From: Mustelus asterias
Lineage: Eukaryota
Length of the DNA stretch: 64,000 nt
Reading direction: 5' to 3'
NCBI RefSeq assembly: GCF_964213995.1
Contig: NC_135830.1
Coordinates: forward strand, 13,082,001 to 13,146,000
How positions within the stretch are numbered: position 1 is the first letter of the stretch; every line of letters begins with the position of its first letter. A program made the position numbers and the translations under genes. Below are positions 3,991 through 44,848 of the stretch, piece by piece. The notes beneath the pieces were generated by a model that was not told the DNA's origin, made no database searches, and was given only the letters and a program-made list of their open reading frames with translations.

Positions 3991-4893
3991 CCTTGGCATC
4001 GGCCTCTGTTTGTGTTTTTCTTACCTGGTGAATTGATTAGCAACCTTCCTGCTGAGAGAGTGCGCACTGAGCTTCAGTGATCCAGTAGGCCAAAGTGGGA
4101 CAGCAGCACTATGGACGGTAGCTATTCGCTGAACCCTGAAACTCTCTCCCACTGTTGAAAGCAAATCCTGGTACTTATATTCTGTGCCAATCGAGTGTGA
4201 GATTACTGTTTCTCCCTGTGTTGTGCTAACCGTGGCCACAATGCTATGGTCTTCTCTCCAGGGTCCAGTCCTGTGTAAATATAATAGAGTCGGAACTGTT
4301 GAGACATCAGGATGTCCCTCTGCCAACTTTTAGTCTTGTCCAGAGGAAAGGGTGTAACCAGCACTGTTTGGTACGAGCCCTGCTGCAAGGATTGTCAGTC
4401 AGCTGTCTGAGAGACAACAGATAACCACCTACAGTCTGGATTTTCTGTCAGGGTTAACTGCCTCATCCTTCTTACCCTCCAAATCCCCCACAAGGTAGAG
4501 GGGGTATTTACCTCAAGCTGAGTGAGGGTCAATATTGAGGGTTGTCCGGAACACTCTCTCCCAAATGCATACCATTGTGTCGCCACGATGGAGCAACATG
4601 GTGGCACAGTGGTTAGCACTGCTGACTCACAGCGCCAGGGACCTGGGTTCAATTCCAGGCTTGAGTCACTGTCTGTGTGGAGTTTGGACCTTCTCCCCGT
4701 GTCTGTGTGGGTGTCCTCCAGGTGCTGCTCTTTCCTCTCACACGGCAAAAGACGTGCTGGATTTAAAACGAACGACAATCAAGTTATTCTGTGTGTGTGT
4801 ACATTTTTTTAACTTTAAAATATCCTCAGTCTAAATGGTAACTTCTTCCCCTGAATCATGTCTAATTTTATCCTTTGTTTTCCTTCCTGACAG

Positions 4894-8669: not shown

Positions 8670-9319
8670 TGAAGTGGGAAAAAATTATACAGATGAGTAC
8701 ACTTAAAAAATAATAACTGCCTCGCACATAAACAGTCACCTGGGAAAGAGACATTAAACAGGTACTGACGTTTAGTACAGACAGCCACCTGAGATTAAAA
8801 CATAAAGGACAGACAGCTATTCAAAGTTAAATATGCAGGAATCAAATCCTGCAGGAAGCCAGCCAGGGCTTGAGGCACTCTTTCGGATAAGGACAATAGG
8901 GATGGGTAAAGAGATGAGCTACAGGTGGGATCGGGAAAACTGCAGGAAAACCAATGACTGTAAATTACTGTATGAATAGACTGAAACTAAAACCATTGAT
9001 AGCCACTGACGTAGGAAATGTATCCATCCTATGAAACAATGCGATGTTAACATGCTTATGTCTGTATCTGTATCTGTCTGTATTTGTCTATAACGATGTG
9101 TTAACGATCGATCGATCACCTGCTTGATTGCACCGATGTGATAATGGATAGATGTCCGGTCCATCTATTGTGTAAAGGGTATAAAGATGGACCGCTCCTA
9201 TTGTCTCATTGAGAAAAGGTTTGCTGCTTGTTCGTGCCTTTTCTCCACGAAGCTTCGTTAAAATAAAACTGTATTCTTGAAACCTTCAAGACTGACTCAG
9301 CGGTACATTTCCTACAACA
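8670..9319 (+). repeat. 5' LTR (650 bp)
   Basis: Begins TGAAGTGGGAAA and ends TTTCCTACAACA (imperfect terminal inverted repeat). TATAAA at 9180 and AATAAA at 9262. Direct repeat of 17449-18060. Confidence 0.93.
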
Positions 9320-9321
9320 AT

Positions 9322-9339
9322 TGGCATAGTCGTTAGGAT
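9322..9339 (+). promoter_or_regulatory. Primer-binding site, tRNA-Ser
   Basis: TGGCATAGTCGTTAGGAT lies 2 nt after the LTR end. It matches 15 of 18 positions of TGGCGTAGTCGGCAGGAT, the complement of the vertebrate tRNA-Ser 3' end. Confidence 0.85.
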
Positions 9340-9931
9340 CCTATTACTGGTGAGATCGATTGGCCACGATCAGAGCCGGGGTAGAGATCACTGAATCTGT
9401 GAGAGTCGGACAAGGTCAAGAATACAGTTTGCGAGGGGTTAAACTTAAGGAGTATTTGTAGTTATAAGTACTGTTGTATATGGTATAGTGATAAATACTA
9501 ACTGATGATTGTAATAAGTAACTGTTGCTTGTGCTGACCGACAAGAGGACAAGGTAGTGCCTGTCTCAAAACCCTGCCTTAGACCGGCTGTTAAGAGGAG
9601 GAACCTCCCACGCGAAGGCCAGGAGATTGAAGTGGGTAAAGGGAAACCAAGGGCAGTTAGAATTGTGAAGCAGAAGTGGCAGAGGTCGGTTAACATCAAA
9701 CTCTGCAGTGGTGAACAAACGCAAAGTTGCCGTCCGATTGCATGAAAGTTTGAAAAGTTGGGAACTGTACTGTCAATGTTGTGAAAAGCGGGTCGGAAAA
9801 GGAATTTGATCAACTCTGACCGGAACCGGAATCCGGTGGAGAAGCACATTGCCGAGGTGGTAATATTGGAAACCGTGAGTATAACTTGAAACCCTGTAGC
9901 GGTAGTGAAACACGGCGCCAGAGTAGTAATC

Positions 9932-11299
9932 GTGGCCGGGGTTAGTGAAGTCTGTGAAATAGCAGATAATGAAGTTAAAAGGGGACAAGCAGGATCCCTC
10001 ATTGAAGTTTACATGACAGACAGGAAAGAGTTAATAGAGAGAATGAAAAATGATGGCTGGGATACTTCTCAGACATTCGAGCAGCAGTGAAAGTGGATAG
10101 ATAAGGAAAAGAGAGACAAGACAAAGAAAATAGGAGTAATGTTAATACATCAGTTTGCTGGTCTAATTGAGCAAGTAGTCATATCTACTAAGAAGTGGAG
10201 TGAAGATAAAGAAAGGATTAGAGAATTAGAATCCCAAGTGAGGGAACTGGGGAATCAAAACTAGGTTTTAGAAGAAAATCAATGGAGCGGGGAAACTGTT
10301 CCTCTACCTCCTTATGAGTCCACACAGCAGGGACCAACCACTCCATCAGAGGAGTGGGAAGTGCAAGAACACAACTGAGCGCCAGTAACCCGAGGGGGAA
10401 CAAATGCGCGACTAAAAGGCAACTTATCAACCCTTCACCGCAGGTGAGAGATAGCACATAATGGATTCCCTGGGTAAATTACAGCCTAGAAGCGCAAACA
10501 CTAAATTCTGGGAAGAATTCGACACAATCTGGTTGGACATCAATTACACCTGAGAGACATACACCAGCTGGTCAGGGCAGCCTGTCCAGCGGATAAGTGG
10601 AGACAGGTAGCAGGTAGAACCGCCGCTCCTCCAGCACAGGATTGTACTGGGGGACGGTGGACACATGCAGTCGCCCTAACCTCGGCGATAGATGCCGAAC
10701 AGGCACCCGTCACCCAGTTTAAAGGAGAGATTCAGAGGGTATTATGGAATGCTCCCACTAACTGGAGCAGAATTACCACAACAAAACAGTTAAAAGGGGA
10801 AGGAGCTTCTGAATAAGGGGAACGGTTGTTCTATCTATATCAAGAGTGCTCAGGATAAGGGAACCCAGGTCGAGGGGATCGAGCGTTCATCCAGGCTTTT
10901 AAAGATGGACTCTCCAGCGCTCACCAGGTCATCCTAAAAATGGGAGTGATTATGTCCCAAGATTATGGTGAGTTGGTAGAGTGGGCTCGCGGAGTACCGG
11001 GAGACGAGAAATCCCAGGCAAGAACAAGGCTAGAAAGAGTATCAGCCTACAGTAATGGGAATGGAACACAATCTAAACCGACTTGCCACAATTGCGGCCT
11101 GCGGGGACACTTTGCAAGGGATTGCGGGACTCCACGGAAAGGGAACTGATTTGGGAACAGTGGGAAACATTGTAGCCACTGTAATAAAGATGGGCACACA
11201 GAAGCAGTATGTTGGAAAAAACATGGGAAACCCCCGACCCGATTCATGACCATAGCAGAACCGGAGGAACCATAGGACCTCCGGGGTCAGCAAGATTGA
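9932..11299 (+). pseudogene. gag: ERV gag (disrupted)
   Basis: Fragmented ORFs 9905-10090 and 10940-11149. Two zinc knuckles, CHNCGLRGHFARDC (from 11084) and CSHCNKDGHTEAVC, in the same frame. The start is approximate (GTG at 9932). Candidate splice donor GTGAGT at 9875. Confidence 0.8.
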
Positions 11300-14200
11300 C
11301 GGTCTGCAGACCCCATCCACAAGGGTAAGAAGGAGGGAAGAATTTACAGGTCAGCACTAGTAGGCGGCAGACAATGTGAGATGCTAGTGGACACAGGAGC
11401 ATCCATATCTGTCACCAACCTACCCTTACCACTACAAATAAAATGATTTACCTCACCGGGATAGGAGGGAACAAAACACCTGCCTACCTGAGCGTGACCA
11501 CGTCAGTACAGATAAATAATCTGTACATACCAATGAGGTTTCATTTGCGCAAAAACAACGAGGGTACAATAATGGGAAATGATCTGATCAAAGAACATGA
11601 GATTCTGATAGACTGTGGAAAGGGAGAATTAATCTGGCCAAGACAGGATGGTCTAAAAACTAGAATAGGGAAACTTACAAGTCACCTCGAAACTATTAAG
11701 GTGGCCACAGTCACCACCAGAAATTGGGAATTAGAAATAGGAGGGTTCGGAGTCATCTGTGCCTCCGTCCCCAGAGTATGGGGTAAAAGAAAGTTGGATA
11801 CCGGTTTGACTAAAACGGACCCAATAAAGGTACCGGGACCGGAGCATAAGCCACACCGACAATACCCAATCAAACCAGAGGCAGAGAAAACTATAGTGGA
11901 GATAGTTAAAGGGTTAGTGGAAATGGGGATTCTGAGAGAAACCACAAGCACCACTAACTCCCCAACATGGCCAGTGAGCAAGCCTGGTGGAAGCTATAGG
12001 CTCACGATAGATTACACGAGACTCAATAAAGTCAGGTCCAAATTGCACCCCACTGTAGCAAGCCCTTCGACAATCCTGAATGGACTGTCACAGGAGCATA
12101 AAATATTCATAGTATTGGACGTAGCCAACGGATTCTGGTCCTTACCATTGGATCCTGAATCCCAAGACAAATTCGCCTTTACATTGGGAGACTAGCAGTG
12201 CACTTGGACTCATTTACCACAGGGGTTCCACAACAGCTCCGCTATATTCCATCGAGCAATGAGTGACATCCTGAACAGAGAAGAACTGCCAGAGGGTAGT
12301 AGGGTCCTTCAATATGTGGACGATATCCTGGTAGCTTCGGAGTCCAAGTCAGGACATCAAGAAGCTTTATAAATACTACTGAATGAATTAAAAGCCGCAG
12401 GGCTAAAGGTGAGCCCCAAAAAGGCACAAATCGGGAAAACACAGGTCCTAAACCTCGGACGCCTTACAATACAACAAATGCCGCGACCCGTCACCGTAAG
12501 AGGGGTCAGAAAGGTGCTCGGGCTATTCAACTATAGCCAGAGTTTCATCCCAGGGTTCGCAAAATTAGCAGAACCCATACAAAAACTGGTCATAGGGGGA
12601 AAACCAGTTTTACGTCCTGTAGAATGGGGACCCAAGCAGGAAGAGCCTTACACTGAACTAAAAACAGAACTGATATCAGCCCCTGGACTAGGATTACCCG
12701 ATTCAAATAAAGACTTCCATAGCCATTGTGATATATATAAATGATTTGGAAGAAGGTGTAACTGGTGTAATCAGCAAGTTTGCGGATGACACGAAGATGG
12801 CTGGACTTGTGGATAGCGAAGAGCATTGTCGGGTAATACAGCAGGATATAGATCGGCTGGAAAATTGGGCGGAGAGGTGGCAGATGGAGTTTAATCCGGA
12901 TAAATGCGAAGTGATGCATTTTGGAAGAAATAATGTAGGGAGGAGTTATACAATAAATGGCAGAGTTATCAGGAGTATAGAAACACAGAGGGACCGAGGT
13001 GTGCAAGTCCACAAATCCTTGAATGTGGCAACACAGGTGAAGAAGGTGGTGAAGAAGGCATATGGTATGCTTGCCTTTGTAGGACGGGGTATGGAGTATA
13101 AAAGCTGGAGTCTGATGATGCAGCTGCATAGAACGCTAGTTAGGCCACATTTGGAGTACTGCATCCAGTTCTGGTCGCCGCACTACCAGAAGGACGTGGA
13201 GGCGTTAGAGAGAGTGCAGAGAAGGTTTACCAGGATGTTGCCTGGTATGGAGGGTCTTAGCTATGAGGAGAGATTGGGTAAACTGAGGTTGTTCTCCCTG
13301 GAAAGAGGGAGAATGAGGGGAGATCTAATAGAGGTGTACAAGATTATGAAGGGGATAGATAGGGTGAACGGTGAGAAGCTTTTTCCCAGATCAGAATTGA
13401 CGTTCACGAGGGGTCACGGGCTCAAGGTGAGAGGGGCGAAGTATAACTCAGATATTAGAGGGATGTTTTTTACACAGATGGTGGTGGGGGTCTGGAATGC
13501 GCTGCCAAGTAGGGTGGTGGAGGCAGGCACGCTGACATCGTTTAAGACTTACCTGGATAGTCACATAAGCAGCCTGGGAATGGAGGGATACAAACGATTG
13601 GTCTAGTTGGACCAAGGAGCGGCACAGGAGGGCCGAAGGGCCTGTTTCCTGTGCTGTACTGTTCTTTGTTCTTTGTTCATTGTAGTAATGAGGGAAGGTT
13701 CTATTCCGCCGTGGTCACACAGGACCATGGCGACAGAAAGAGACCCATAGGGTATTATTCCACAGCAGAAGGGCCGGTAGTCACCGGACTGCCAAGGTGC
13801 ATAGCCGCCTTGGATTGTTCAGCCTGGGCTGTAAAGGTTAGTGAGCCAGTAATAATGACAGGGAATATAATCCTTCACACCAAATGGTGGAAATGTTGAA
13901 CACGGGAAAACTAAGGTCAGTCTCAAACATGAGAAGGGCTAAGTGGGAAGCTGTCCTCCTACCTCCAAGTAAGTCCATAATAATAATCAGGGATACAGGG
14001 AATAACCCTGCAGAAGGGATTTTAGACGAAGGAGAGCCACACAATTGTGAAGATATAGATAGGGACGAAGAAGAGGGTAAGATAAAGCATATATCCTTAA
14101 TAACAGCTGAGGAGACCCTCTTTGTGGATTGGTCACCTAATGTGTGGAAGGATCACCCCGAACAGGGTGGGCAGCAGTGAATGACAAATTAGACACAGTA

Positions 14201-15770
14201 AGGTCAGGAAGGATTGACGGAGGTCTATCCACGCAAGTGGCAGAACTAGTGACACACACAGGCACGAGAGTTAGCTCAAGGTAAAACGGTGAACATCTAC
14301 AAAGTCATTCGCTATGCATTCGGAGTCATACATGACTACATGACAGCATGGGGAAGAAGAGGGTTCATAACCACAGGAGGGACCCCCTATTAGGCACCAG
14401 CAAAGAATTGAGGCATTATTGAGACCTAGCGAGAAACCTAGATAAAGCGCAGTGATCAAAATTAAAGCGCATCAGAAAGAACCAGGAAGAGATAACTCGG
14501 ATTGGTTAAATTTCAAAGGGAACCAAGCCGCAGACAGGGCGGCACAGTTAGCCTGATGACAGGAGACAATTGGCGAGCTGCCAATAGCAGCAACAGAACA
14601 GACAGGAGACGAAAAAGATATTCAGGACTTACATTAGGATACCCCAAAGAAGGGAAAGGAAAAATGGGAAGCACAGGGAGCAGTCAAAGGGACTGATAAC
14701 ATTTGGAGATGGGAAGATTCAGGTAATAGCACCAGAGTGCATACAAAACACCCTATTGGAACTACACCATGGACTCTCACATGTGGGTAGAGAGGCCATG
14801 ATAACTAGGAACGGAATGGTAGTGGAAAGGAATGGGAAGAGATATAGCCCGACACTGTCAGCGATGTGTGACGTGCGCGCAACACAACCCTGGTAGACCA
14901 ATAAAAATTAAAACGGGACACAAACCGAGACCAAAGGGACCCTGGGAACATCTGCAAATAGATTTCACAGGGCCACTACCATAATCCCATGGCAAAACTT
15001 ATTGTCAGGTTATTATAGACCAGTTCACCAGGTGGGTAGAAGCGTTCCCCACTACAAATTGTACTGCTACCACGGTGGCTAGGATATTGGCAGAAGAGCT
15101 AATCCCTCTGCGGGGTGTACCCCTACAAATCGATTCGGACCAAGGGACGCACGTCACTGGAAAGGTGGTAAAAACAGTATGCCAATTAATGGCGATAAAA
15201 CAAAAAATTCACATCCCTTACCACCCACAGAGTTCTGGAATGGTGGAACGTATGAATAGAACACTGAAAAATGCATTAGCTAAAGCCAGACAAACATCGG
15301 GAAAAATGTGGACAGAGGTATTGTCCACTATACTAATGAGATTAAGAGCTACCACAAACCGGACAACCGGATTAACCCCTTATGAACTAATGACAGGAAG
15401 GGCGATGCAATTACCCGAAAGCATCATAACAGGTGGGACTGATGTAGGTCCACTAAAAGATAAAGTCAGGAGGTATGTTTTGGAACTGAGTACCCAACTA
15501 AAAGAGATGCGCAAATTGGTAAAGAACAATCAGGAAATAAAAGACACAGAGCGAGAGCTTGAAATGCTCCCTGACGTCCTAACAGCGGGAAGTCGCGTCC
15601 CAGTAAAAACATTACCTGACAAACCAGAGTTTGCACCAAAATGAAATGGGCCACATGACGTTATAATTAGTGGAGACACCTGTGCCTGTATAGACATAAG
15701 AGGGAAAGGTGTCTGGAAACACTGGACACAGCTAAAATTAAACAAGGGTACAAATAAGTAATTAAATTGA
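11300..15770 (+). pseudogene. pol: ERV pro-pol (protease, RT, RNase H, integrase; disrupted and split by a CR1 insertion)
   Basis: DTGA at 11390. ORF 11443-12195 contains QYPIK, NSPTWPVSKPGGSYRLTIDY and LDVANGFWSLPL. YVDD at ~12313. ORFs 12409-12744, 13651-13899 and 13884-14180 cover connection/RNase H, and 15075-15644 covers the integrase core. Confidence 0.92.
12730..13677 (+). mobile_element. Young 5'-truncated CR1 LINE inserted in ERV pol
   Basis: Open 292-aa RT C-terminus (IYINDL..KFADDTK..MEFNPDKCEVMHFG), 3' tail (GTTCTTT)n, flanked by the CATTGT duplication at 12724-12729 and 13678-13683. Confidence 0.95.
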
Positions 15771-15868
15771 TGAACGAACAGAACTACTTTCCTCAACTCA
15801 GGCAAAGACTGCAAGCCAGAACGGCTGGCGCACGCGGGTTAATAGATAAAATAACTTGTAAAGATTAT

Positions 15869-17396
15869 ATGAATTATAGTGTTAGGTTTGATATTTGATC
15901 ATTGCGAATATGTATGCAATCGCATATGTAAAAGTACTACTTTGCGTTGTCGCGACTGTAAATTTGACTGACTTGGAGGATAACTTGTTTTACAAAGCTC
16001 ACATACATTTACACGGGAATCGAACTGTATTTACCCGTTAGCACAATCGGTAGAAGCCCTATTTGTAGCCACCCTTGGGTGGACCCCTCATGACTTATAT
16101 ACTGTAGATAGATCAAATACACCCTGGAAGGGACAAATTGGCAAATATAAAAGAGGTATACAGGGGAGATGTGTGGGACTTGTGAACCCCACAGATCCTG
16201 TGCGCAGGGGTTTCCAACAGGTGGGGGGAAAGGCTCGGTCAGATACTGCAAACTATCTGCTTTGTTTTTCGGGGCAGGGAAGAGGATGTCCCTATGCCTT
16301 GGTCCCTAAGAATGATTCCTGCGTACAGACGCAGTGTGTCCTTCAACATTGTCGGGTTAATAAGGGACAGTTTACTTGCACTTGGGATGAACAGAAATGT
16401 CTGAATATAACCGCGGGAAGACAGCTTATTTGTGGACAATGCAATGGAACTCACGTAAGTTCAGCCAAATGGACATACCCATTTGATACTTACCAGGTGG
16501 TGGGATCAAACGGGGAGTCAAGTAAACCGAACAATTGGCAATATGAACAAACTCATAATCATGACACTAAATGTTACCGGGCTAAGAAGCGAGATGTGTT
16601 CCTCTTCAATGGTAGCTACGTGACAGAAACGCCAAACCTGCCAAAACCTTTTTCAGAAGGAACAATAGGACCACTGACAGTTCCATGCCCTCAGAAGGGA
16701 CATATTCGGGGGAGAATAGTAACTCGGGCTATCAGCAAAGAATTCAGCGCTGATTGGGAAGCCACGGGCACGATGGAATCCTCAATGGGATGTGGGTTCC
16801 TTGGAGCCTTATCTCTGGAGGGGGGCAGCAGGAGTGATTAGTGCAAAGAATCGGAATCATATTGTTTGTGGACTAACTGTCCTGGGAAACAGCACTTCAA
16901 AAGCACTGGAGGCTGTTAACCAAGAAATGGCTGAACTGAGATTGTATGCACAACAGACACGATACGCAGTGAACTATCAGTTAGCACAACAAGGGGGAGT
17001 GTGTACAATTATAGGCAATAAACGCATAACCCATGTCTCAGACGAGTCCTATAACATTACACAGGTCATCAATAGCATCAGAGAACAACTTGATAGCTTC
17101 AGACAGGGACCCAAGAAAGGAAGTAACTGGCTGGAATGGCTAGTGGCGGGGCGGGGGGGGGGGGGGGTGGAGGTTCCTGGGAATCTTACATATTACATGG
17201 ATTGGTCATGCTCATTTCAATTCTAATTGTCTGTTGTCTAATTGTTGGATGCCTGAAAGTCTGTTGCAAGGTGATGTTGACGAGAGTTGCGCCAGGAGCC
17301 AGTGGATACATCGAAGAAGAAACCACGATGAAGATCCCCGAAGACATCAGACGAAACGGAGAAGGAAAGCAGAAAAACAAAGAATTATACATGTAA
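15869..17396 (+). pseudogene. env: ERV env (SU + TM; disrupted)
   Basis: Cys-rich SU ORF 16173-16841 with basic cleavage region RGRIVTR/AIS at ~16727. TM in ORF 16792-17226 (heptad, ISD-like QTRYAVNYQLAQQGGVC) and ORF 17136-17396 (membrane anchor ILHGLVMLISILIVCCLIVGCL). Candidate splice acceptor at 15801. The start is approximate. Confidence 0.88.
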
Positions 17397-17448
17397 AATT
17401 ATTGGTCTAGGGATTAGTGAAACTCATAATCCGACCAAACGTGGGGAC

Positions 17449-18060
17449 TCAAGTGGGAAAAATATACAGATGGGGACACATAAAATGGTTGCCTGGCACA
17501 TAAACAGTCACCTGGGAAAGAGACATTAAACAGGCACTGACCTTCAGTACAGACAGCCACCTGAGATTAAAATATAAAGGACAGACAGCTATTCAAAGTT
17601 AAACATACAGGAATCAAATCCTCCAGGAAGCCAGCGATGGCTTGAGGCGCTCTTTCGGATAAGGACAATAGGGATAGATAACGAGATTAGCTGCAGGTGA
17701 GATCGGGAAAACCAATTACTGTAAATTACTATATGAATAGACCGAATCTAAAACCATTGATGGTCACTTACGAAGGAAATGTATCCATTCATAGAACAAT
17801 GCGATGTTAACATACTTATGTCTGTATCTGTTTGTATTTTTCTATAACGATGTGTTAACAATCGATCACCGACTTGATTACAATGATGTGATAATGGCTA
17901 GATGTCCAGTCCATCCATTGTGTAAAGATGGAACGCTCCTATTATCTCATGGAGAGAAGGTTTGCTGCTTGTTAGTGCCTTTTCTCCACGAAACTTCGTT
18001 AAAATAAAACTGCATTCTTGAAACCTTCAAGCCTGACTCAGTGGTAAATTTCCCACAACA
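17449..18060 (+). repeat. 3' LTR (612 bp)
   Basis: Follows the purine-rich tract CAAACGTGGGGAC. Begins TCAAGTGGGAAA and ends TTTCCCACAACA. Roughly 90% identical to the 5' LTR by eye. Confidence 0.93.
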
Positions 18061-18451
18061 CCAGTATTGCTCTCTCTATCTCGCTTTCTCCCCATTTCCG
18101 TTCACCTCTCTCCAGAATATCTCCCTCTTTCCAGCTTCTTTGTGTGGCTGCTTTGAAGCAAAGCACGATAGTGGGCGGCACGGTAGCACAGTGGTTAGCA
18201 CTGCTGCTTCATAGCTCTAGAGACCTGGGTTCGATTCCTGGCTTAGGTCACTGTCTGTGCGGAATTTCCACGTTCTCTCCGTGTCTGCGTAGGTTTCCTC
18301 CAGGTGCTCCGCTTTCCTCCCACATGGTGAACGACGTGCTGGTTAGGTGCATTGACCCGAACATGCGCCAGACTGTGTTGACTAGGGGAATTTCACAGTA
18401 ACTTCATTGCAGTGTTAAGGTAAGCCTTACTTGTGACGAATAAATAAACGT

Positions 18452-21400
18452 TTCCCCTCCAGGAAACTCAGGGTCGTTCTACGTAGTCATCCCGGTCGCT
18501 CGGACATCATCCGGCTAGCCCTTGGCCGCTGGCCGGACCTGGCGCGGCTCGTCCGGTCCGTGAGGGCATGCTCGCATGCCTCCGCGGGCCTGGAGAAAAT
18601 AGAGCAGCGCTGGGTACTGCGGTTCCTCCACAGGCTCGAAAAGGTGGCGGGCGGACTGGTGAGTATTGCGCCAGCGCTCCCCCAAACACCAAGATAAGTG
18701 GTGACGGTGGCACAAAGCTGCTGACATGAAGGTGACCATAGCCAGCCTCAACATCAACGGCAGCAGTGAGCCACACGGCAGGTTCCAGAACTTCTCGGTC
18801 CTCCATGACGGGAAGTATGCGGTGTGTTTCCTGCAGGAAACCCACACCGTTCCGGGAGACGAAGCCTAATGGCTCCTGGAGTGGCGAGGGGGGGGGTCTA
18901 CATGAGCCAACTCACGCTCGCTTCAAGCGGGGTGGCCATCTTGTGGGCCCCGCATTATAAGCCGGAGATCTTAGGGGTCAAGGAGCCGGTGCCAGGCCGG
19001 TTGCTGCACTTGACGGTCCGTGAGGGGGGCGTGGTCATTCACTTGCTGAATGTCTACGCCCCGACCGCCGGACCGCAGCAAACGACTTTCTACGAGAAAG
19101 TGTCCGCTCACATCGACACCATCGCGGGGGGCGAATGCATTATCCTCGGGGGAGATTTCAACTGCATTCTTAAGACACGGGACCGCACCGGCCCCTGGCT
19201 GAGCACTCCGGCGGTGGTGAAGTTGCGGGACCTGATCGGGTCCCACGACTTGGTGGACGTCTGGAGACATCTCCATCCTGGCTCCAGCGCCTTCACTTTC
19301 GTGAGGCCTGGAGTCGGAGCGTCCAGGCTCGACTGCCTTTACATTTCGAAGGCGCACGTGTCCGGCGTGTCCTCGGTCTCCATGCGGCCGGTGTCGAGCA
19401 CGGACCACAGCCTGGTGTGGGCGGACTTTGCGCCGTCTCGCATCCGGCGGGGGTCCGCGTACTGGCACTTTAACAACACGCTGCTGGAGGACGAGCGCTT
19501 CCTGGACTCGTTCCGTCGATTCTGGGCCGGCTGGAGAAGGAAGCGGGGAGGCTTCCCCTCCTTGAGGCTCTGGTGGGATGTGGGCAAGACTCACGTCCGT
19601 ACCTTCTGTCAGGGGTACGCGAGGGGGTCGACAAAGAGGCGGAAATCCAGGCTCGAGGAGTTGGAGAAGGAAGTGCTCGACCTGGAGGCACGTCTCAGTT
19701 GGCCTGACGCGGACCCGGCCCTGCGTTCGGAGTACAGGGAGAAGAAGGACGCGCTGCGGGACCTGCAGCTTGCCAGGTCTCGCGGCGCGTACGTGAGGTC
19801 GCGGCTCCAGTTCCGGGTGGACCTGGACCGCGGCTCCCCCTTCTTCTACTCGCTGGAAAGAGGGCGGGCTAACCGTCAGCAGTTCCTTACGCTGCTGGCC
19901 GACGATGGTTCCCCCGTCTCGGATCCGGAGGGCATCCGGGCCATTGCCCGGGAGTACTACACCTCGCTCTTCTCTCCGGATCCGTCCAGCGAGGATGCCC
20001 GCAGACTTCTGTGGGAGGACCTGCCGCAGGTCAGCCCGGAGGGCGTCGGCAGGCTCGAGGCCCCTACCACCATGGCCGAGCTGACCGGCGCCCTAAATGG
20101 GCTCAGCCGGGGCAAGGCCCCTGGGCTGGACGGGCTGACAGTAGAGTTCTTCAGGGCGTTCTGGGACGTCCTGGGGAGCGACTACGCGGGGGTCCTGGGG
20201 GAGAGCGTCGCTACCGGGGTGATGCCCCTTTCGTGGCGCAGGGCCGTCATTGCCCTGCTGCCCAAGAAGGGGGATCTCCACCTGCTCAAGAACTGGCGTC
20301 CGGTCTCCCTCCCCAGCACGGATTATAAAATCTTTGCCAGGGCTATGGCTTCACGCCTTGGATCCGTGCTGGACCACTTGATCCACCCTGACCAGTCCTA
20401 CACGGTCCCGGGCCGTTGTATACATGACAATCTCCACCTGGTCCGGGACCTAATCCATCACACCCAGAGGGCTGGTCTGTCGGGCGCCTTCTTGTCATTA
20501 GATCAGGAGAAGGCGTTCGACAGGGTGGAGCACGAGTATTTACTCGGGACTCTGCGGGCATTCGGGTTCGGGACACATTTTGTCGCCCGGATCCGATTAC
20601 TGTACTCTGCCGCAGAGTGTCCGATTAAGGTTAACGGGTCCCTGACGGCGCCCCTTCGCTTCGGGAGAGGAGTACGGCAGGGCTGCCCCTTGTCCGGCCA
20701 ACTGTATTCCGTATGCGTGGAGCCATTCCTGCGCCTCTTGCGGAGGAGGTTGTCAGGTTTGGTCCTGCGCGGACCGGACGTAGGGGTGGTCCTGTCAGCT
20801 TACGCCGACGACGTGCTCCTCATGTTCACGGACCCGGCTGACCTGCGGAGGATGCGAGAATGCCAGGCGGTGTACTCCGCCGCGTCCTCCGCCAGGATCA
20901 ACTGGGCCAAGTGCTCCGAACTCCTTGTCGGTCCTTGGGAGACGGACCCCCTTCCGGAGGAGCTCAGGCCTTTCACCTGGAGCAGGACCAACCTCCTCTA
21001 CTTGGGGGCCCATCTCTGCCCAGCCGAGGAATCCTGGCCGGCGAACTGGCGGGAGCTGGAGGCCAAAGTCTCCGCCCGCCTGGGTTGCTGGACAGGACTG
21101 CTCCGAGTGCTGTCCTACGGGGCGCGAGCTCGCGTCATAAACCAGCTGGTCGCCTCCATGCTGTGGTACCGGCTGGTCCCTTTGACCCCTCCCCCTGGCT
21201 TTGTCACCGATATCCAGAGAACCCTCGTGCGGTTCTTCTGGGGCAATCGACTGCACTGGGTCCCTGCTGCGGTCCTGTATCTCCCGCTTGAGGAGGGCGG
21301 ACAAGGTCTGGTGTGCCTCCGCACTCAGATAGCGACCTTCCGCCTCCAGGCCCTGCAGAGGTACCTTTACGTTGAGCCCCCTCCACAGTGGTGTGCCATG

Positions 21401-22748
21401 GCGACGTATTTCTTCCGCCAGTGGCACGGCCTCAATTATGACGTGCAGCTCCTGCATATCGAACTGGGGCGTGCTTCGACCGCCCTGCAGGAGTTGCCCG
21501 TCTTTTACCAGGACCTCCTCACTGTCTGGAACAAGGTCGCCTCGCGACGCAGCTCTCCCCCGTCAGGAGTAGCGGCTCTCGTGCGAGAGCCGCTGCTCAG
21601 GAATCCGCTCCTCCAGCCGTATAACTTCAGGTGGCTGGCGGAGAGGGGGGCTGTGGACGCCGGGGTGACCAGAATCGGGGACGTGCTCGATGGCGGAGGA
21701 GCGGGCTGGATGAGTCCCCGCGTGCTGGCTGAGCGTGCGGGGACGTCCGTCCGGCGCGCGGCCAAAGCCATCCTAGACCTTAGGACGGTCGTGCTCGGCC
21801 CCGAAACTGCACGCAAACTTGAGACGGCGCAGGCGTGCGGTGGGATCCCGCCCGAGCGTTCCCCTGTTCGGGCGGAATTCCACATTGGCCCAAAGCCTCA
21901 GCCCCCTCCCCTGGGTGAGGTGCCCCACAGCTTGAGCCGCCTCGCGGAAATGCCCTCCGTGCCTTTTTCTACCGCGCGGAGGCGTTTCCTGTGCGGGCTG
22001 CTGCTGCACACCCTCCACTACCGCCTCCTCGCCTGTCGCCCGGATACACCTTGGCGGGCCTTGTTGCCGTCGGGCGGCGGAGGTCCCCGCTGGAGGTCCC
22101 TCTACGGAGGGATCTCCCCCAATTACGTCGGGGACCTGGGGTGGAGGGTGATGCATGCAGCAGTTCCGCACAACCGTAGGATTCACTGGTTCACGGGCTC
22201 CGAAGACTGCCCTTTCTGTGGCCTTGTGGAGTCCGTGGACCATGTCTATGTTGAGTGTCTTAGGCTGCACTCCCTTTATGTTTTCCTGAAGAACCTTTTA
22301 TTGATGTTTTGTTTACACTTCAGTCCCACGCTCCTGATCTACGGACACCCGGTGCGGAGAGGGGAGGGTCGGGATGGCGACCTCCTCGTGAACCTGCTCC
22401 TGGGCCTGGCGAAACGCGGCATTTACCGGTCCAGGCAGCGGGCGATCGAGGGGGCCGTCCATCCTGACTGTCTTCCCCTCTACCGCGGCTACGTTCGCGG
22501 CCAGGTGTCCCTGGAGAGGGAGCATGCGGTGTCCACGGGCGAGGTTGACGCTTTCCGCGCCCGCTGGGCACCGCAGGGGTTGGGGTGCATTATTGACCCT
22601 AATAATCACATTTTAATTTGATGTTTTTAAGTTTCCTTTGCATTTTGATTTCTGTTCGGGCTGTTCCCCCTCCTTTTTGGGGAGCTGCCCCTTTTACTTT
22701 GTCCTGATTTAATTTGAGTTTGTTTACTTGGTTTGACCTAAAAAGAGG
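18452..22748 (+). mobile_element. Tx1-clade non-LTR retrotransposon, 5'-truncated in ORF1, young
   Basis: GC/CpG-rich block sharply distinct from its flanks. Contains an APE-RT-CCHC ORF2 and a T-rich 3' UTR ending CTAAAAAGAG. Confidence 0.92.
18726..22621 (+). CDS. Tx1 ORF2: APE endonuclease, reverse transcriptase, C-terminal zinc knuckle (two lesions near the N-terminus)
   Basis: MKVTIASLNING..CFLQETH from ATG 18726. In-frame TAA at 18867 and a frameshift in the G9 run 18888-18896. Then open for more than 1240 codons with LNVYAP, GGDFN, TDH, KAPGLDG, DQEKAFD, GVRQGCPLS, YADD (20801) and CPFC-x7-H-x4-C. Confidence 0.9.
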
Positions 22749-24625
22749 TCTCTCTGAATGCAGATTGATCTTCAGACAGACTCAAACTTCCTCCTGTCTC
22801 CCAACATCTGTGAGTAAAACACTTTCTTTTCTCTCCCTTTCCACTTCTTTTCTCATTCTGGGGGAAATTGGGGACTTGCAGCAACTGAAGGGAAAGGAAG
22901 TGAATCCAGGGAGGCTGCAGACTCTGGAAAGGTTGGCCCAGCTCCTTCGAGCCTGTTCTGCCATTCATTACGATCATGGCTGATTGTCAAATTCAATATT
23001 GAGATCCCGCTTCACTTTCCCCACCCCATTCCCCACGACATCCATGTCTCTTGATCCCTTTAGCCCCAAGAGCTATGTTCAATTTCTTCTTGAAATCACA
23101 CAACGTTTGTCTCTCAACTACTTTTCTGTGGTAGTGAATTCCGCACATTCACCACTCTGGGTGAAGAAATTTCTCCTCACCTCATCCGAAAAGGTTCACC
23201 CCTTATCCTCAAACTATGAGCCCCAGTTCTGGACTGCCCCACCAGTGGGAACATTTCTGAATCTATCCTGTCTAATCCTGTGAATGTTTATAAATTTCTA
23301 TGAGATTCCATCTCATTTTTCTAAACTCCAATGAATATAATCCTAAACAATTTAGTCTCTCCTCATATGACAGACCTGCTATCCCAGGAACCAGCCTGGT
23401 AAACTTTCACTGGACTCCCTCTCGAGTAAGACATCTCCTTCCTCACAAAAGGAGACCAAAACCATAAAAGGATACCAAAACTGCATACAATACTCCAGGC
23501 GTAACTCAGGGGCAGTATGGTGGCACAGTGGTTAGCACTGCTGCCTCACAGTGCCAGGAACTTGGGTTTGATTCCCGGTTTGGGTCACTATCTTTGTGAA
23601 GTTTACACATTCTCCCTGTGTCTGTGTGGGGTTCCTCCATCTGCTCCAGTTTCCTCCCACGGTCCAAATATGATTGGCCCTGCTAAATTGACCTTAGTTT
23701 TGGGAAGGGATTAGCAGGGTAAATATGTGGGGTTATGGGGATAGGGCCTGGGTGGGAATGTGGTTGGTATAGACTCAATGGGCCAAATGGCCTCCTTTAG
23801 TACTGTCGGGATTCTATGAAGTCTATGTCAATTCTCTGTGGAGCTATTCCCCCCCCCCCCCCACCCCCAGCATGCCGACCCTATAGTTAAGAAAGCCCAC
23901 TAATCCTCTACTTTCTCAGAAGGCGAAGGAAATTTGGCATGTCAGTTACAACTCTCACCAACCTTTCCAGATGCACCATAGAAGGCATTCTGTCTGGCTG
24001 TATCATAACCTGGTATGGCTCCTGCTCTGTCCAAGACCGCAAGAAACTACAAAAGATCGTGAATGTAGCCCAATCCGTCACTCAAACCAGCCTCCCATGC
24101 ATTGACTCTGTCTACACTTCCCGCTGCCTCGGCAAAGCAGCCAGCATAATTAAGGACCCCATGCATCCTGGACATACTTTCTTCCACCTTCTTCCGTGGC
24201 GAAAAAAATACAAAAGTCTGAGGTCACGTACCAACAGATTCAAAAACAGTTTCTTCCCTGCTGCCATCAGATTTTTGAATGGACCTATCTTGCATTAAGT
24301 TGATCTTTCTCCACACCCTAGCTATCACTATAACATTACATGCTGCACGCTCTCATTTCCTTCTCTATGAACGGTATGCTTTGTCTGTATAGCGCGCAAG
24401 AAACAATACTTTTCATTGTATACTAATACATGTCCCAATAATAAATCAAATCAAAATATTCAATGACCCTCAGCCTCCAGTGATCCCTGTGGAAGAGAAA
24501 TACAAAGACTAATGACTCTAACGAGTGACTGGAAATATCTAAGGTAGCTCCAGTATATTAGTCTGTCTGAAGCTCAATCTGCACTCAGAGAGAGAGAGGA
24601 ACAGCAGCTTTGCTGGTCTAACAAT

Positions 24626-24830: not shown

Positions 24831-26313
24831 GTCTAACAATGAGGAAATCATGCGGCCATGCACACGAGGCTCGAACTCTGATTGGTTGGAGGACCAGCGT
24901 CCATCTGGTCCTCCACGCGTTACCATTGGTCAATCTCCCGCATGTAGACAATAAGGGGGTGGAAGTGGAACCCACATGGGGGGTTGGGCGGGGCTTTGTC
25001 CGCCAGCCGCTGGTGACCAATCCGCAGTGTGCTGCTTCTGTAACCAGTGATATTGCTGCCAATGGGACACTGTGTGCGGGGAACGCCCCTCTGAGTCATT
25101 GTGACGGCACAATGGAGCCCTGCCTGATTCAGCCAATAGCAATCACTCTGCTGGACTACCCTGAGGCAGCAAGTTCAAGATCCTCATCAAACACAACCCC
25201 CTGTATCTTAACCAACTGAAACAATCCTATCCGTTAAACACATTGTTAGTCCAGTCATATAGACATATATCTGTCTGGCAGCCTGCATGGAGATTTTCAG
25301 CTCTCTGTGTCCAGGACAGGAAGTGGTGAGCATTGGAGGTGGTGGCATAGTGGTGTTGTCACAGACCCAGAGTAACGCACTGGGGACCGGGTTCAAATCC
25401 CACCACAGCAGGTGGTGAAATTTGAATTTAGGGTGACACAGTGGTACAGTGGTTAGCACTGCGGCCTCACAGCACCAGGGACCGGGGTTCAATTCCAGCC
25501 TTGGGTCTGTGTGGAGTTTGCACATTCTTCCCGTGTCTGTGGGGGTTTCCTCTGGTTGCTCCAGTTCTTCCCACAGTCCGAAGATGTGCGGGTCAGGTGG
25601 ATTGGCAATGCTAAATTGACTTTAGTGCCAGGGGATTAGCGGGGTAAATACATGGGGATAGGACCTGGGATAGTGGTCGGTGCAGATTCGGTGGGCTGAA
25701 TGGCCTCCTTCTGCACTGTGGAGATTCTATGATTCTAATTGATTCTATGATCTGTCAATCAGCACCTTCAGGAGAATTGGGAGGGTGAATATTAGATACA
25801 GCAGAGTGAGAATGGAGGGAGAGTGTGTGGGATGGAGATTCACAGGTCTTGGGGAATGAGAGAAGAAACAATATTATAGAGAAAGTAGAATTGTCCATTC
25901 TGAATTTCTATCCTGCACTGACAGTGATTATTTTTGTAAATTCCTTTCACAGGATACCAGTAGGTGAGGATTTACAGACAGAAATCTCAAACCAAGCATT
26001 AAGTCAAGATCTCTGAGTCACTCGATTCATTGGGACCTGAATGCTATCGGCCTTTAACTCTCAAAGGAGAAATGTTTCTCTCTTCTGTCTACTTCTAAAG
26101 ACTTTAAACATCAGTGTGACTGGGATGTTACTGAGAGACACACACATCCGAGTGAGAGTGTTCCATTGCACTGGCTGACCGTGGAAAGAACTTTAACCAG
26201 TTACACAGCCTGAAAGTACATCGCAGCATTCACAGCGGGGAGAGACTGTACCCGTGTTCTGTGTGAGATTTAACTGACTGTTTAACCTGGAGAGTCACAA
26301 GGACACCCGCACC

Positions 26314-27082
26314 ATGGAGAAACCGTGGAAATGTGGGGACTGTGAGAAGGGATTCAGGTTCCCATTTCAGCTGGAAATTCATCAACGCAGTCACACTGGG
26401 GAGAGACCGTTCACCTGCTCTGTGTGTGGGAAGGGATTCACTCAGTTATCCAGGCTGCGCGCACACAATCTCACTCACACCCAGGAGAGACCCTTTAAAT
26501 GCCCTGACTGTGGGAGTGGTTTCAAAAGCACTGCAGAACTTGTAACCCACCAGCGCATTCACACTGGGGAGAGACCGTTCAACTGCTCTCACTGCACAAA
26601 GGGATTTAAAAGGTTATACACTCTATATACAGCTGGAAACTCATCAGCGCAGTCACAGTGGGGAGAGACCATTCACCTGCTCTGAGTGTGGAAAGGGATT
26701 CGTTCTGTCATCCCACCTACTTACACATCAGCGAGTTCACACTGGGGAGAGACCTTTTAAATGCTCTGACTGTTGGAAGTGCTTCAAAAGTTCTGGTGAA
26801 CTGATGTCCCATCAACGTGTTCACACTGATGAGAGACCATTCAGGTGCCTTTACTGTGGGACTGGGTTCAGGCATTCACATCACCTCACTGTACACCAGC
26901 GCATCCACACTGGGGAGAGACCATTCACCTGCTCCGAATGTGGGAAGGGATTCATTCAGTCTTCCAGCCTGCTGAGACACCAGCGCACTCACACCGGGGA
27001 GAGACCATTCATCTGCTCCGAGTGTGGGAAGGGATTCACTCAGTCATTCCATCTGCTTAAACACCAAAGAATTCACCAGTAA
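26314..27082 (+). pseudogene. C2H2 zinc-finger gene, 9 fingers, frameshifted in finger 4
   Basis: Tandem C-x2-C-x12-H-x3-H fingers with HTGERPF linkers. A 10-nt insertion (26620-26629, ACTCTATATA) shifts from ORF 26314-26685 into the frame of ORF 26804-27082. Acceptor TTTCACAG at ~25951, and decayed fingers at 26060-26310. Confidence 0.9.
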
Positions 27083-35900: not shown

Positions 35901-36023
35901 CCTGGGTCCCCAGAGCCTTACCCTGAGTCCAGTGATAATTCCACTGTGCCACTGCCTCCCCTATTGATCCAATTGTTATTGTTTATCTCAGGGCGCAGAA
36001 ACAACAGAATCCAACTTTGCCGG

Positions 36024-37704
36024 TCACACATGAAGTCGTCTATGTTTCAGCAGGCTGTAATACTGAGTAAATCCCTTCCCACACATGGAGCAGTTGAAAG
36101 GTTTTGCCCCAGTGTGAACTCGCTGGTGTCTCTGCAGGCGGGATGGATCAGTGAATCCCTTCCCACACACAGAGCAGGTGAATGGTTCTGTCGCAGTGTG
36201 AACTCGCTGGTGTCTCTGCAGGTTGGATACCTGAGTGTATCCCTTCCCACACACAGAGCAGGTGAACGGCTTCTCCCCGGTGTGAACTCGCTGGTGTGTC
36301 TGCAGGCGGGATGGATCAGTGAATCCCTTCCCACACAGGGAGCAGGTGAACGGTTCTGTCGCAGTGTGAACTCGCTGGTGTCTCTGCAGGCTGGATACCT
36401 GAGTGTATCCCTTCCCACACACAGAGCAGGTGAACGGCTTCTCCCCGGTGTGAACTCGCTGGTGTGTCTGCAGGCGGGATGGATCAGTGAATCCCTTCCC
36501 ACACACAGAGCAGGTGAACGGCCTGTCCCCTGTGTGAATGTATTGGTGTCTCAGCAGGCCAGACGACTGAGTGAATCTCTTGCCACAAATGGAGCAAGAG
36601 AATGGCTTCTCCCCTGTGTGAGTGCGGCGGTGTGTCCGGAGGCTGGATGACTCGGTGAAAGCCTTCCCACACTCGGAGCAGATGAACGCCCTCTCCCCGG
36701 TGTGAACAGGCCGATGTTTCAGCAGGTGTTGTGAAGAAGCAAATGCTTTCCCGCACACAGGGCAAGCGTAAGGCCTCTCCCCTGTGTGAACACGCTCGTG
36801 CATCACAAGCTGGGATGAACAAGGAAACATCTTCCCACACACGGAGCAGAGGAATGGCCTCTCCCCAGTGTGAACTCGCCGGTGCCTCAGAAGATAGTGA
36901 GACCGAGTGAATTCCTTCCCACACACCGAGCAGGTGAACAGCTTCTCCCCAGTGTGAACTTGCTGGTGTGTCAGCTGGTCAGTTGATTGAACTTCTTCCT
37001 TTCTACACATTGAGGAGGTGAATGGTTTCCCTCCAGTGTGAATACTCTTGTGTGTCAAAAGGTGTGAAAATCGAGGGAATCTCTCCCACACAGGGAGCAG
37101 AGGAATGGCCTCTCCCCAGTGTGAACTCGCTTGTGTGTCAGAAGATGAGATGAATGAGCGAATCTCTTCCCACAAACAGAACAGGGGTACGGCTTCTCCC
37201 CGGTGTGAGTGCCCTGGTGTCTCAGCAGACTAATCCTTCTTTTGAAGGTCTTCTCACATTTAAAACATTTAAAATGTCTCTTCTGAGAATGAACCAGTTG
37301 GTGAACGGTGCAGTGGGAGGACTGAGTGAATCTCTTCACACACTGGGAGCAGCTGAATGGCCTGTCCTTGGTGTGAACTTGTTGGTGCTCAGTGAGGTGC
37401 ACTGAGTCACTGAATGACTCTCCACAATGAGTGCAGCTGAACGGTCTCTCGTGTGTGTGAAGGAGCTGGTGCTCTGCAAGGCGGGAGGACTGGCTGAACC
37501 TCTTCCCGCAGTGGGAGCAGCTGAACGGTCTCTTGTCAGTGTGAAGGAGCTGGTGTTGGGCCTGTTCCTCAGGCGTCTCAACGCTGTCCCCAGAGTCAGA
37601 GCTTTGAAGAGGCTTCTCATCAATGTGATCGAGTTGGTGAGCCAGCAGGTTGGACGAACACATGAATTTCTTCCCACACACGGAGCAGGTGAATGAACTC
37701 TCAC
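36024..37704 (-). pseudogene. C2H2 zinc-finger gene, ~20 fingers, one frameshift near 37085
   Basis: ORFs 37055-37681 and 36024-37175 are consecutive finger arrays joined by a 1-nt deletion in CSLCG(K)RF. Acceptor TTTTGCAG at ~37913. Confidence 0.9.

Positions 37705-43907: not shown

Positions 43908-44848
<941 letters not shown>

Follow-up and report, generated by a model that had tools for sequence, protein, structure and literature searches.

The window, that is, the whole stretch of 64,000 nucleotides analysed here, belongs to contig NC_135830.1 of Mustelus asterias and contains a provirus at ~8670–18060 with an envelope (env) gene between the integrase and the 3' LTR (Table 1). The LTRs are 90.7% identical over 610 aligned columns (K2P 0.10). 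A target-site duplication was sought at the flanks at 8670 and 18060 and no match between the LTR ends was found, so the LTRs may have been brought together by recombination, and the insertion may not be datable from their ~10% divergence. The primer-binding-site-like stretch resembles what we take to be the 3' end of a tRNA-Ser. Pro-pol is interrupted by stops and frameshifts; the best PDB matches of its reverse transcriptase (RT) are MLV (65 bits) and foamy virus (63.6 bits). The LINE fragment within pol, presumably CR1/L2-like, is flanked by a 6-base duplication and carries a simple-repeat tail. This copy of the provirus is dead, and no full-length Env can be made from its broken env.

Table 1. 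Features of the provirus and its env gene (positions in the window)
Feature	Position	Strand	Basis or remark
5' LTR	8670..9319	+	repeats D13 and D19; TG...CA ends
Primer-binding-site-like stretch	9322..9339	+	TGG immediately 3' of LTR end
gag, 3' part, CCHC zinc knuckle	10859..11149	+	Pfam zf-CCHC, E 1e-5
pro-pol: RT with YVDD, RNase H, integrase	11380..15644	+	Pfam RVT_1, RT_RNaseH, rve
LINE RT fragment within pol, at start of RNase H	12729..13682 (ends approximate)	+	Pfam RVT_1 on 12692-13603
env piece 1: signal peptide and SU N-terminus	15910..16029	+	tblastn, P0001 residues 1-40, 90% identical
env piece 2: Cys-rich SU	16032..16727	+	tblastn, P0001 residues 42-307, 79%
Predicted SU/TM boundary, R-I-V-T-R	16713..16727	+	not R-x-x-R
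TM N-terminus and internal fusion loop	16728..16869	+	motif positions
HR1 with N-x-T sequon (16888-16896) and ISD-like stretch	16870..17001	+	PF22307, PDB matches
Chain-reversal motif, CX6C type in the family, without third Cys	17002..17028	+	
HR2 with N-I-T sequon (17053-17061) and membrane-proximal region	17029..17145	+	
env piece 4: membrane anchor and cytoplasmic tail	17178..17396	+	tblastn, P0001 residues 416-497; ORF list
3' LTR	17449..18060	+	pairs with 5' LTR

Just after the provirus, an open endonuclease-RT frame of 1270 amino acids (18809-22621) marks a GC-rich non-LTR retrotransposon, which we assume to be Tx1-like. Further on, arrays of 84-base C2H2 zinc-finger-like repeats (26296-27076, 35947-37421 and 43917-44757) place the provirus in a zinc-finger gene cluster. 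A tRNA-headed, SINE-like repeat is dispersed in ~8 copies (e.g. 2081-2400, 4596-4760, 18178-18342 and 23515-23821).

The env gene is broken three times, near 16030, at 16820-16829 and at 17145-17178, once more than the two G-run frameshifts counted in a preliminary description of this DNA; env piece 4 starts after a G-run break. The peptide quoted there corresponds to 16858-17073 within the frame 16723-17226. Landmarks of the SU include a C-G-Q-C motif at 16431-16442 and a conserved C-terminal Cys at 16686-16688. Within the TM, the site of the family's first fusion-loop Cys falls at 16746-16748 and is not Cys in the window copy; the hydrophobic, Gly-rich segment (~16788-16845) spans a frame break, and the loop-closing Cys lies at 16867-16869. 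A basic cleavage site had been described ahead of the TM. The predicted boundary, R-I-V-T-R, is not a furin-type R-x-x-R site; among relatives it varies as R-I-V-A-R or R-L-V-A-R, and other relatives keep canonical basic, furin-type sites. We take R-I-V-T-R to resemble either an SKI-1/S1P-type R-x-aliphatic-x site or an R-x4-R convertase site; in the accessible parts of the literature searched, no consensus statement bearing on the SKI-1/S1P reading was found.

The search of the animal's own genome returned 3771 candidate copies, of which the 150 scored are all 88–100% identical; the env belongs to a high-copy ERV family, likely of cartilaginous fish. Named database relatives, on which this host attribution rests, come from Pristiophorus (sawshark), Heterodontus (horn shark), Scyliorhinus (catshark) and Mobula (manta). 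One copy (L002, G000:C108) is 100% identical over the TM piece and has the private substitutions of the window copy; it is a duplicate or alternative haplotype of it. Before the conserved SU, some family members (P0010, P0019, P0074 and P0172), many Scyliorhinus torazame members included, possess an extra Cys-containing N-terminal domain of ~150 residues, which looks like an added receptor-binding domain.

Motif states were counted in the 30 best-scoring own-genome copies, window copy included, selected on the TM stretch. The first Cys of the turn and the loop-closing Cys are present in 30/30 copies and the second Cys of the turn in 27/30; the third Cys of a CX6CC motif occurs in none of the 30 copies and in none of the 21 database relatives, in agreement with the preliminary reading of CX6C rather than CX6CC, and it is also absent from Mab2 and Tapajos GP, the two glycoproteins introduced below. 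The family's first loop Cys, TM residue 7, is present in 24/30 copies and absent from the window copy. The Cys of 'GCGF' pointed out earlier in the fusion segment is copy-specific, being carried by only 2/30 copies (Tyr in 21), and was rejected on that count as the loop Cys. The proposal that the fusion segment is internal and Cys-bounded rather than N-terminal is borne out by the loop Cys pair of family members; in P0001 hydropathy peaks at TM residue 32 and stands at -0.3 at the start of the profile, indicating that there is no N-terminal fusion peptide. Between the loop Cys lie 40–44 residues in family members; filoviruses have 45 and ASLV-like Envs 38. The N-glycan site where HR1 begins occurs in 30/30 copies and is also common in ordinary Envs.

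These states bear on how SU and TM are held together. The third Cys makes the SU–TM bond, and ASLV and filoviruses clamp their internal loop by a Cys pair, according to the accessible accounts (Hogan & Johnson 2023; Hotzel 2023; PMC3758190). Because this third Cys is lacking, the SU–TM contact is predicted to be non-covalent in the family. The Cys of the TM ectodomain number exactly four, and GP2 has a homologous partner for every one of them. Even numbers of SU Cys are found in P0007 (16), Mab2 (12), Tapajos (18) and, counted from the conserved N-terminal motif onwards, P0010 (12); in these proteins the SU Cys can do without a partner in the TM. In the window's sub-family C-G-x-C contributes an extra Cys and the count is odd (15 or 17), which makes a free thiol or an unusual link possible. 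This second Cys of the motif (C-G-Q-C in the window) is present in 28/30 copies and absent in P0007, P0010, P0019 and P0074, whose architecture is the same wherever it is covered; tested as a CXXC isomerase motif, C-G-x-C was found in the window's sub-family and in none of these four other family members.

The preliminary description had aligned the TM with Ebola GP2 without gaps, at about 24 identities in 68 positions and with matching spacings (Cys-7-sequon-38-Cys and a sequon at +17), and these observations are accurate. PDB alignments of the TM piece 16825-17142 are ungapped as printed; a count by eye against the Ebola string given there also gave 24; over 68 ungapped columns the window and five filovirus GP2 (Marburg, Ravn, Dehong, Mengla and Lloviu) share a median of 24 and a maximum of 26 identities; and the spacings hold in the window and in 30/30 own-genome copies. 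The database Ebola GP2 core (2ebo) is 35% identical to P0001 over 69 columns. In a phmmer search of the PDB with the TM piece, filovirus GP2 came first (best E 3.4e-12, range to 1e-8), followed by CAS reptarenavirus GP2 at E 1.4e-8 and syncytins at E 0.04–0.3, and 44 of the 50 sequences listed outscored syncytin. With P0001 as query, most filovirus chains scored 30–60 bits, syncytins 17–27 and solved ASLV TM cores 11.

Since the PDB is rich in filoviruses and poor in non-mammalian Envs, a null was built from the library-wide search. Against 103 ordinary gamma-type Envs, which are matches to a family member and hence biased towards similarity (P0074 was left out of the groups), the window shares a median of 22 and a maximum of 30 identities over the same 68 columns, and 23/103 beat the best filovirus by BLOSUM score. 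The HR1 sequon occurs in 71/103 of these Envs, the +17 sequon in 58/103 and both in 33/103. Gapless collinearity, identity and the two sequons were rejected as proof of filovirus affinity on this null; the numbers reported are correct and are not the telling evidence. What is diagnostic is the internal fusion loop bounded by Cys, together with the missing third Cys. Mengla GP ranked 89th among the 150 listed in the library-wide search.

The loop-closing Cys lies at the filovirus offset in 13/16 family members, 5/5 filoviruses and 0/103 other Envs, a group partly defined by lacking it. The +17 sequon is found in 14/16 family members, 5/5 filoviruses and 0/2 of Mab2 and Tapajos. Scored against Marburg GP2, family members are 5 of the top 6 non-filovirus sequences, and against Lloviu GP2 6 of the top 10. 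With Marburg GP2 as query, a search yielded only 6 proteins, all Marburg-like, and no Ebola or reptarenavirus sequence. The Pfam comparison suggested earlier was carried out as well: Filo_glycop matched neither the window nor its relatives, and TLV_coat did not match the window piece, though it matches some relatives (P0001 reaches 19.2 bits against a cut-off of 22.5, and several others exceed it). PF22307 (Ebola-like HR1–HR2) gave 26.4 bits for the window against a cut-off of 27, and 27.6–30.9 for six relatives. Among family members the Pfam and PDB matches are to GP2 and gamma-type TM, with none to GP41. An endogenous filovirus GP was considered and rejected, as the env sits in a provirus context and has no Filo_glycop match.

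Two of the library matches, the GP of Tapajos virus, a snake filovirus (YP_010798909.1), and the Env Mab2 of the lizard Mabuya (ATY46612.1), extend the comparison to the SU. An SU-only profile of 10 family members scored Mab2 SU at 47.7 bits (shuffle maximum 5.6), Tapajos at 1.8 bits and mammalian filovirus GP1 at ~0. Mab2 SU against Tapajos GP1 gave 50.7 bits (shuffle maximum 6.7; the Mab2–Tapajos alignment covers 434 columns at 28% identity), and a joint profile of family and Mab2 SU raised Tapajos to 14.7 bits (shuffle maximum 3.3). As the Tapajos score rises only once Mab2 is added, the link from shark SU to Tapajos GP1 is transitive. The window's own SU piece matches Mab2 weakly (E 0.014). 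N-terminal and C-terminal SU Cys are common to the family, Mab2 and Tapajos. With hhalign, the SU gave probabilities of at most 2% against filovirus GP1 (0.2% for mammalian filoviruses), ASLV-like and gamma-type SU. As judged from these profiles, homology to Mab2 extends over the whole Env, with the SU, and reaches Tapajos GP by way of Mab2.

The two structural models obtained are of low confidence. The full-length P0001 model has pLDDT 55 and pTM 0.24, and the SU-only model of P0008 pLDDT 53 and pTM 0.45. Compared with 48,161 chains, the SU model placed filovirus GP1 in the top five positions (Z 5.4–4.6, rmsd 3.3–4.6, 87–103 residues, the matched GP1 region being mostly ~32–190), followed by syncytin-2 SU (Z 4.2, 77 residues, within ~1 Z unit of GP1) and then lentiviral and HERV-K SU, and a further comparison agreed; filovirus GP1 or retroviral SU make up 15 of the 23 chains with Z of at least 2. 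The Z-scores are low, but the list is coherent. The match agrees with the proximal domain that SU and GP1 have in common according to the accessible text of Hotzel 2023, and is hence one of fold kinship and not of special closeness to GP1. The SU model had no match in the viral library at E<=0.001. The full-length model had none at E<=0.001 in a Foldseek search of the PDB, where the top rows were GP2 post-fusion cores; its top rows in the viral library were Mengla GP and EAV-HP Env, at very high rmsd, and a wide structure search with it returned generic helices only.

Trees were computed without reptarenavirus, Ebola, tarsier or Varanus rows. For the first, on 84 columns, 136 of 157 proteins gave a core; P0074 was mis-anchored there and was left out of later trees, which used hand-picked subsets of 45 rows (window included) and 34 rows, the window being absent from the 169-column tree. 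Free 84-column trees place the family as sister to the mammalian filoviruses (SH-aLRT 85; 87/53) and reproduce the published topology, including Tapajos with Mabuya. Without the two Cys columns, the family and mammalian filoviruses still group (92/80), the loop Envs are no longer one group, and the AU test does not reject a family placed outside them (p-AU 0.29). Constraining the 84-column core to unite the family with Mab2 and Tapajos gave a likelihood 4.75 lnL units above the free tree (p-AU 0.69); uniting all rows lacking the third Cys, or filoviruses with ASLV-like Envs, gave +2.65 and +2.70, respectively (p-AU 0.60 each). The 169-column TM tree unites the family with Mab2 and Tapajos (95/86), with alternatives at p-AU 0.26–0.31, among them sisterhood with mammalian filoviruses at 0.30, which is not rejected, and with one ordinary gamma-type Env (P0050) inside the loop group. 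None of the other possible sister pairings is rejected by AU tests. Taken together with the homology of the SU and the Cys state in common, the trees lean to Mab2/Tapajos as sister of the family. The lineage close to the filovirus/reptarenavirus GP2 branch proposed earlier stands in part: in most trees the family falls among loop Envs and next to filovirus GPs, but pairwise similarity does not single out filoviruses, the nearest whole Envs are Mab2 and Tapajos GP rather than those of Ebola or Marburg, and the solved ASLV TM cores are far more distant (11 bits against 30–60).

A second clade of fusion-loop Envs without the third Cys (P0045, P0060, P0081, P0103, P0109, P0140 and P0143) groups near ASLV-like Envs; one of its members, from the lizard Phrynocephalus, lies beside Gag_p24 and dUTPase.

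The anatomy of the provirus, the size of its family, the motif states and the homology of the whole Env to Mab2, and via Mab2 to Tapajos GP, are observations. From them we consider it probable that the broken env of this decayed, high-copy provirus, of which the described stretch is the TM part, once encoded a class I fusion protein whose internal loop is predicted to be clamped by a disulfide and whose SU–TM contact is predicted to be non-covalent, in one lineage with Mab2 and Tapajos GP and with mammalian filovirus GP2 nearby. In such a protein, the Env precursor would be cut near R-I-V-T-R, and TM Cys7 and Cys47 would close the fusion loop, as in Ebola GP2 and ASLV TM, while the SU would rest on the TM through a GP1-like beta base. 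A trigger, presumably the receptor and perhaps low pH (by analogy only), would lead to insertion of the loop, after which HR1 and HR2 would fold back around the CX6C turn and form a six-helix bundle. The family retains the N-terminal SU Cys that in ASLV and filoviruses bonds to the TM; here it would likely pair within the SU, the conserved C-terminal Cys being one candidate partner.

Taken further, though more tentatively, the shark-family Envs, Mab2 and Tapajos GP may constitute a distinct Env type with an internal fusion loop and no SU–TM disulfide. Tapajos virus might then have taken an entire env, SU and TM, not the ectodomain alone, from this lineage; the GP1-like SU fold would suggest that the ancestors of Ebola and Marburg viruses also acquired a complete env, theirs coming from a close relative, and the family would preserve the filovirus spike with its GP1 core as a genomic fossil.

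The placement of the family is where competing readings differ. That it is the true sister of mammalian filovirus GP2, with independent losses of the third Cys here and in the lizard/Tapajos clade and an ancestral SU similarity, appears unlikely to us. It is the topology of Fig. 6 in the accessible version of PMC11521997 (PP 0.83) and of the free 84-column trees, and it is favoured by the lead of family members among non-filovirus scores for Marburg and Lloviu GP2, by the +17 sequon common to filoviruses and the family but not to Mab2 and Tapajos, and by the match of the SU model to GP1. The longer tree nevertheless prefers Mab2/Tapajos, as does the constrained tree that beats the free one on the short core; the SU has no sequence homology to mammalian filovirus GP1, in either the profile or the hhalign comparison; and two losses of the third Cys are required.

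The TM could also be that of an ordinary relative of anamniote gamma-type Envs, its likeness to GP2 reflecting general fold conservation and convergent loop cysteines. The null speaks for this, with 23 ordinary Envs outscoring the best filovirus against the window and both sequons being common, as do the low rank of Mengla GP and the p-AU value for the family outside the loop group. However, every free tree on aligned rows puts the family with filoviruses and/or Mab2/Tapajos, the loop Cys lies at the exact offset, the SU is homologous to that of Mab2, and the grouping given in the accessible text of PMC11521997 has PP 0.89, so that this reading seems to us very improbable. We give scarcely any credence to a covalent SU–TM link through another Cys, in which the extra C-G-x-C Cys would attack or replace a TM disulfide in a gamma-type-like manner: the odd SU Cys count and the CXXC in the window's sub-family point that way, but all four TM ectodomain Cys have homologous GP2 partners, and the extra Cys is missing in four family members of the same architecture where covered.

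The link between shark ERVs and filovirus GP2 is already published, and the finding as first described adds one more member to it. Nino Barreat & Katzourakis (2024, PMC11521997) reported, in the text accessible, cartilaginous-fish ERV ectodomains sister to Ebola, Marburg, Lloviu and Mengla GP2, with elements from Chiloscyllium, Scyliorhinus, Amblyraja and Leucoraja and with Tapajos grouped with lizard elements; the preprint agrees, and the best viral matches tabulated there are to the glycoproteins of Mengla, Marburg, Ebola, Tapajos and CAS viruses. As far as its main text is accessible, cysteine, disulfide, fusion loop, GP1 and CX6C are not mentioned. The accessible text of the Tapajos description (PMC8498845) contains no occurrence of glycoprotein, retrovir, envelope or furin, and nothing on Tapajos GP cysteines or SU was found in the accessible portions of PMC8498845, PMC11398700, PMC12566026, PMC11089739 and PMC7926653. 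The literature search found no paper describing Mab2 itself. The combination of loop and CXnC, and the SU homology, were not found stated in the literature covered, most subscription papers lying outside the search. What is added here, the whole-Env homology to Mab2 and Tapajos, the shared lack of the third Cys and the SU model, is a modest new angle.

Envs are sorted by subunit linkage into covalent gamma and avian-gamma types and non-covalent beta types, the beta type being held to be mammalian only (for the definitions, see the accessible parts of Hogan & Johnson 2023 and Hotzel 2023). The family has the fusion loop of the avian and filovirus type but has lost the linking Cys, and it has both this state and its SU in common with a real filovirus glycoprotein. 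If upheld, this would give a testable series for the origin of the filovirus spike, from whole-env capture to gain or loss of the GP1–GP2 disulfide, and would shift the published sister relationship.

Compared with known systems, the elements of PMC11521997 are alike in host group, retroviral context and a filovirus GP as best named viral match; the two sets were compared by description and topology, and they differ in that the longer tree here moves the family next to Mab2/Tapajos. The CXnC Envs of Chen et al. (bioRxiv 10.1101/2021.11.23.469661), anamniote Envs with CXnC variants, three novel fusion peptides and six cartilaginous fish, resemble the family in these variants and in including cartilaginous-fish elements; in the accessible text their clades are not tied to filovirus GP or a Cys-bounded loop. 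A 2026 preprint on shark Envs, as far as accessible, describes CX6CC types and does not mention filoviruses. Gamma-type Env (MLV/syncytin) differs in its CX6CC third Cys and N-terminal fusion peptide. Beta-type Env shares CXnC without a third Cys, but its TM is related to gp41/MMTV, whereas the family TM matches GP2 and gamma-type TM. The avian gamma-type Env of ASLV, as described in the accessible text of Henzy & Johnson 2013 (PMC3758190), has an internal fusion peptide that is Cys-flanked ~7–9 residues past the cleavage site, an arrangement not seen outside birds according to these authors, and an HR1 glycan; unlike the family it has CX6CC and covalent subunits, and its solved TM cores reach only 11 bits.

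Mammalian filovirus GP (Ebola, Marburg, Lloviu and Mengla) shares with the family the ungapped HR1–turn–HR2, both sequons, the loop Cys offset and an SU model similar to the GP1 core, but it has CX6CC with a GP1–GP2 disulfide and a 45-residue loop, whereas the family is provirus-encoded and lacks SU sequence homology to it. Mab2 and Tapajos GP differ from the family in having CX7C rather than CX6C, a loop of 38 rather than 40–44 residues, an R-x-x-R site and no +17 sequon, and Mab2 is 22% identical to the family over the full length; both are homologous to the family along SU and TM and, like it, have a Cys-bounded loop, no third Cys and the two terminal SU Cys.
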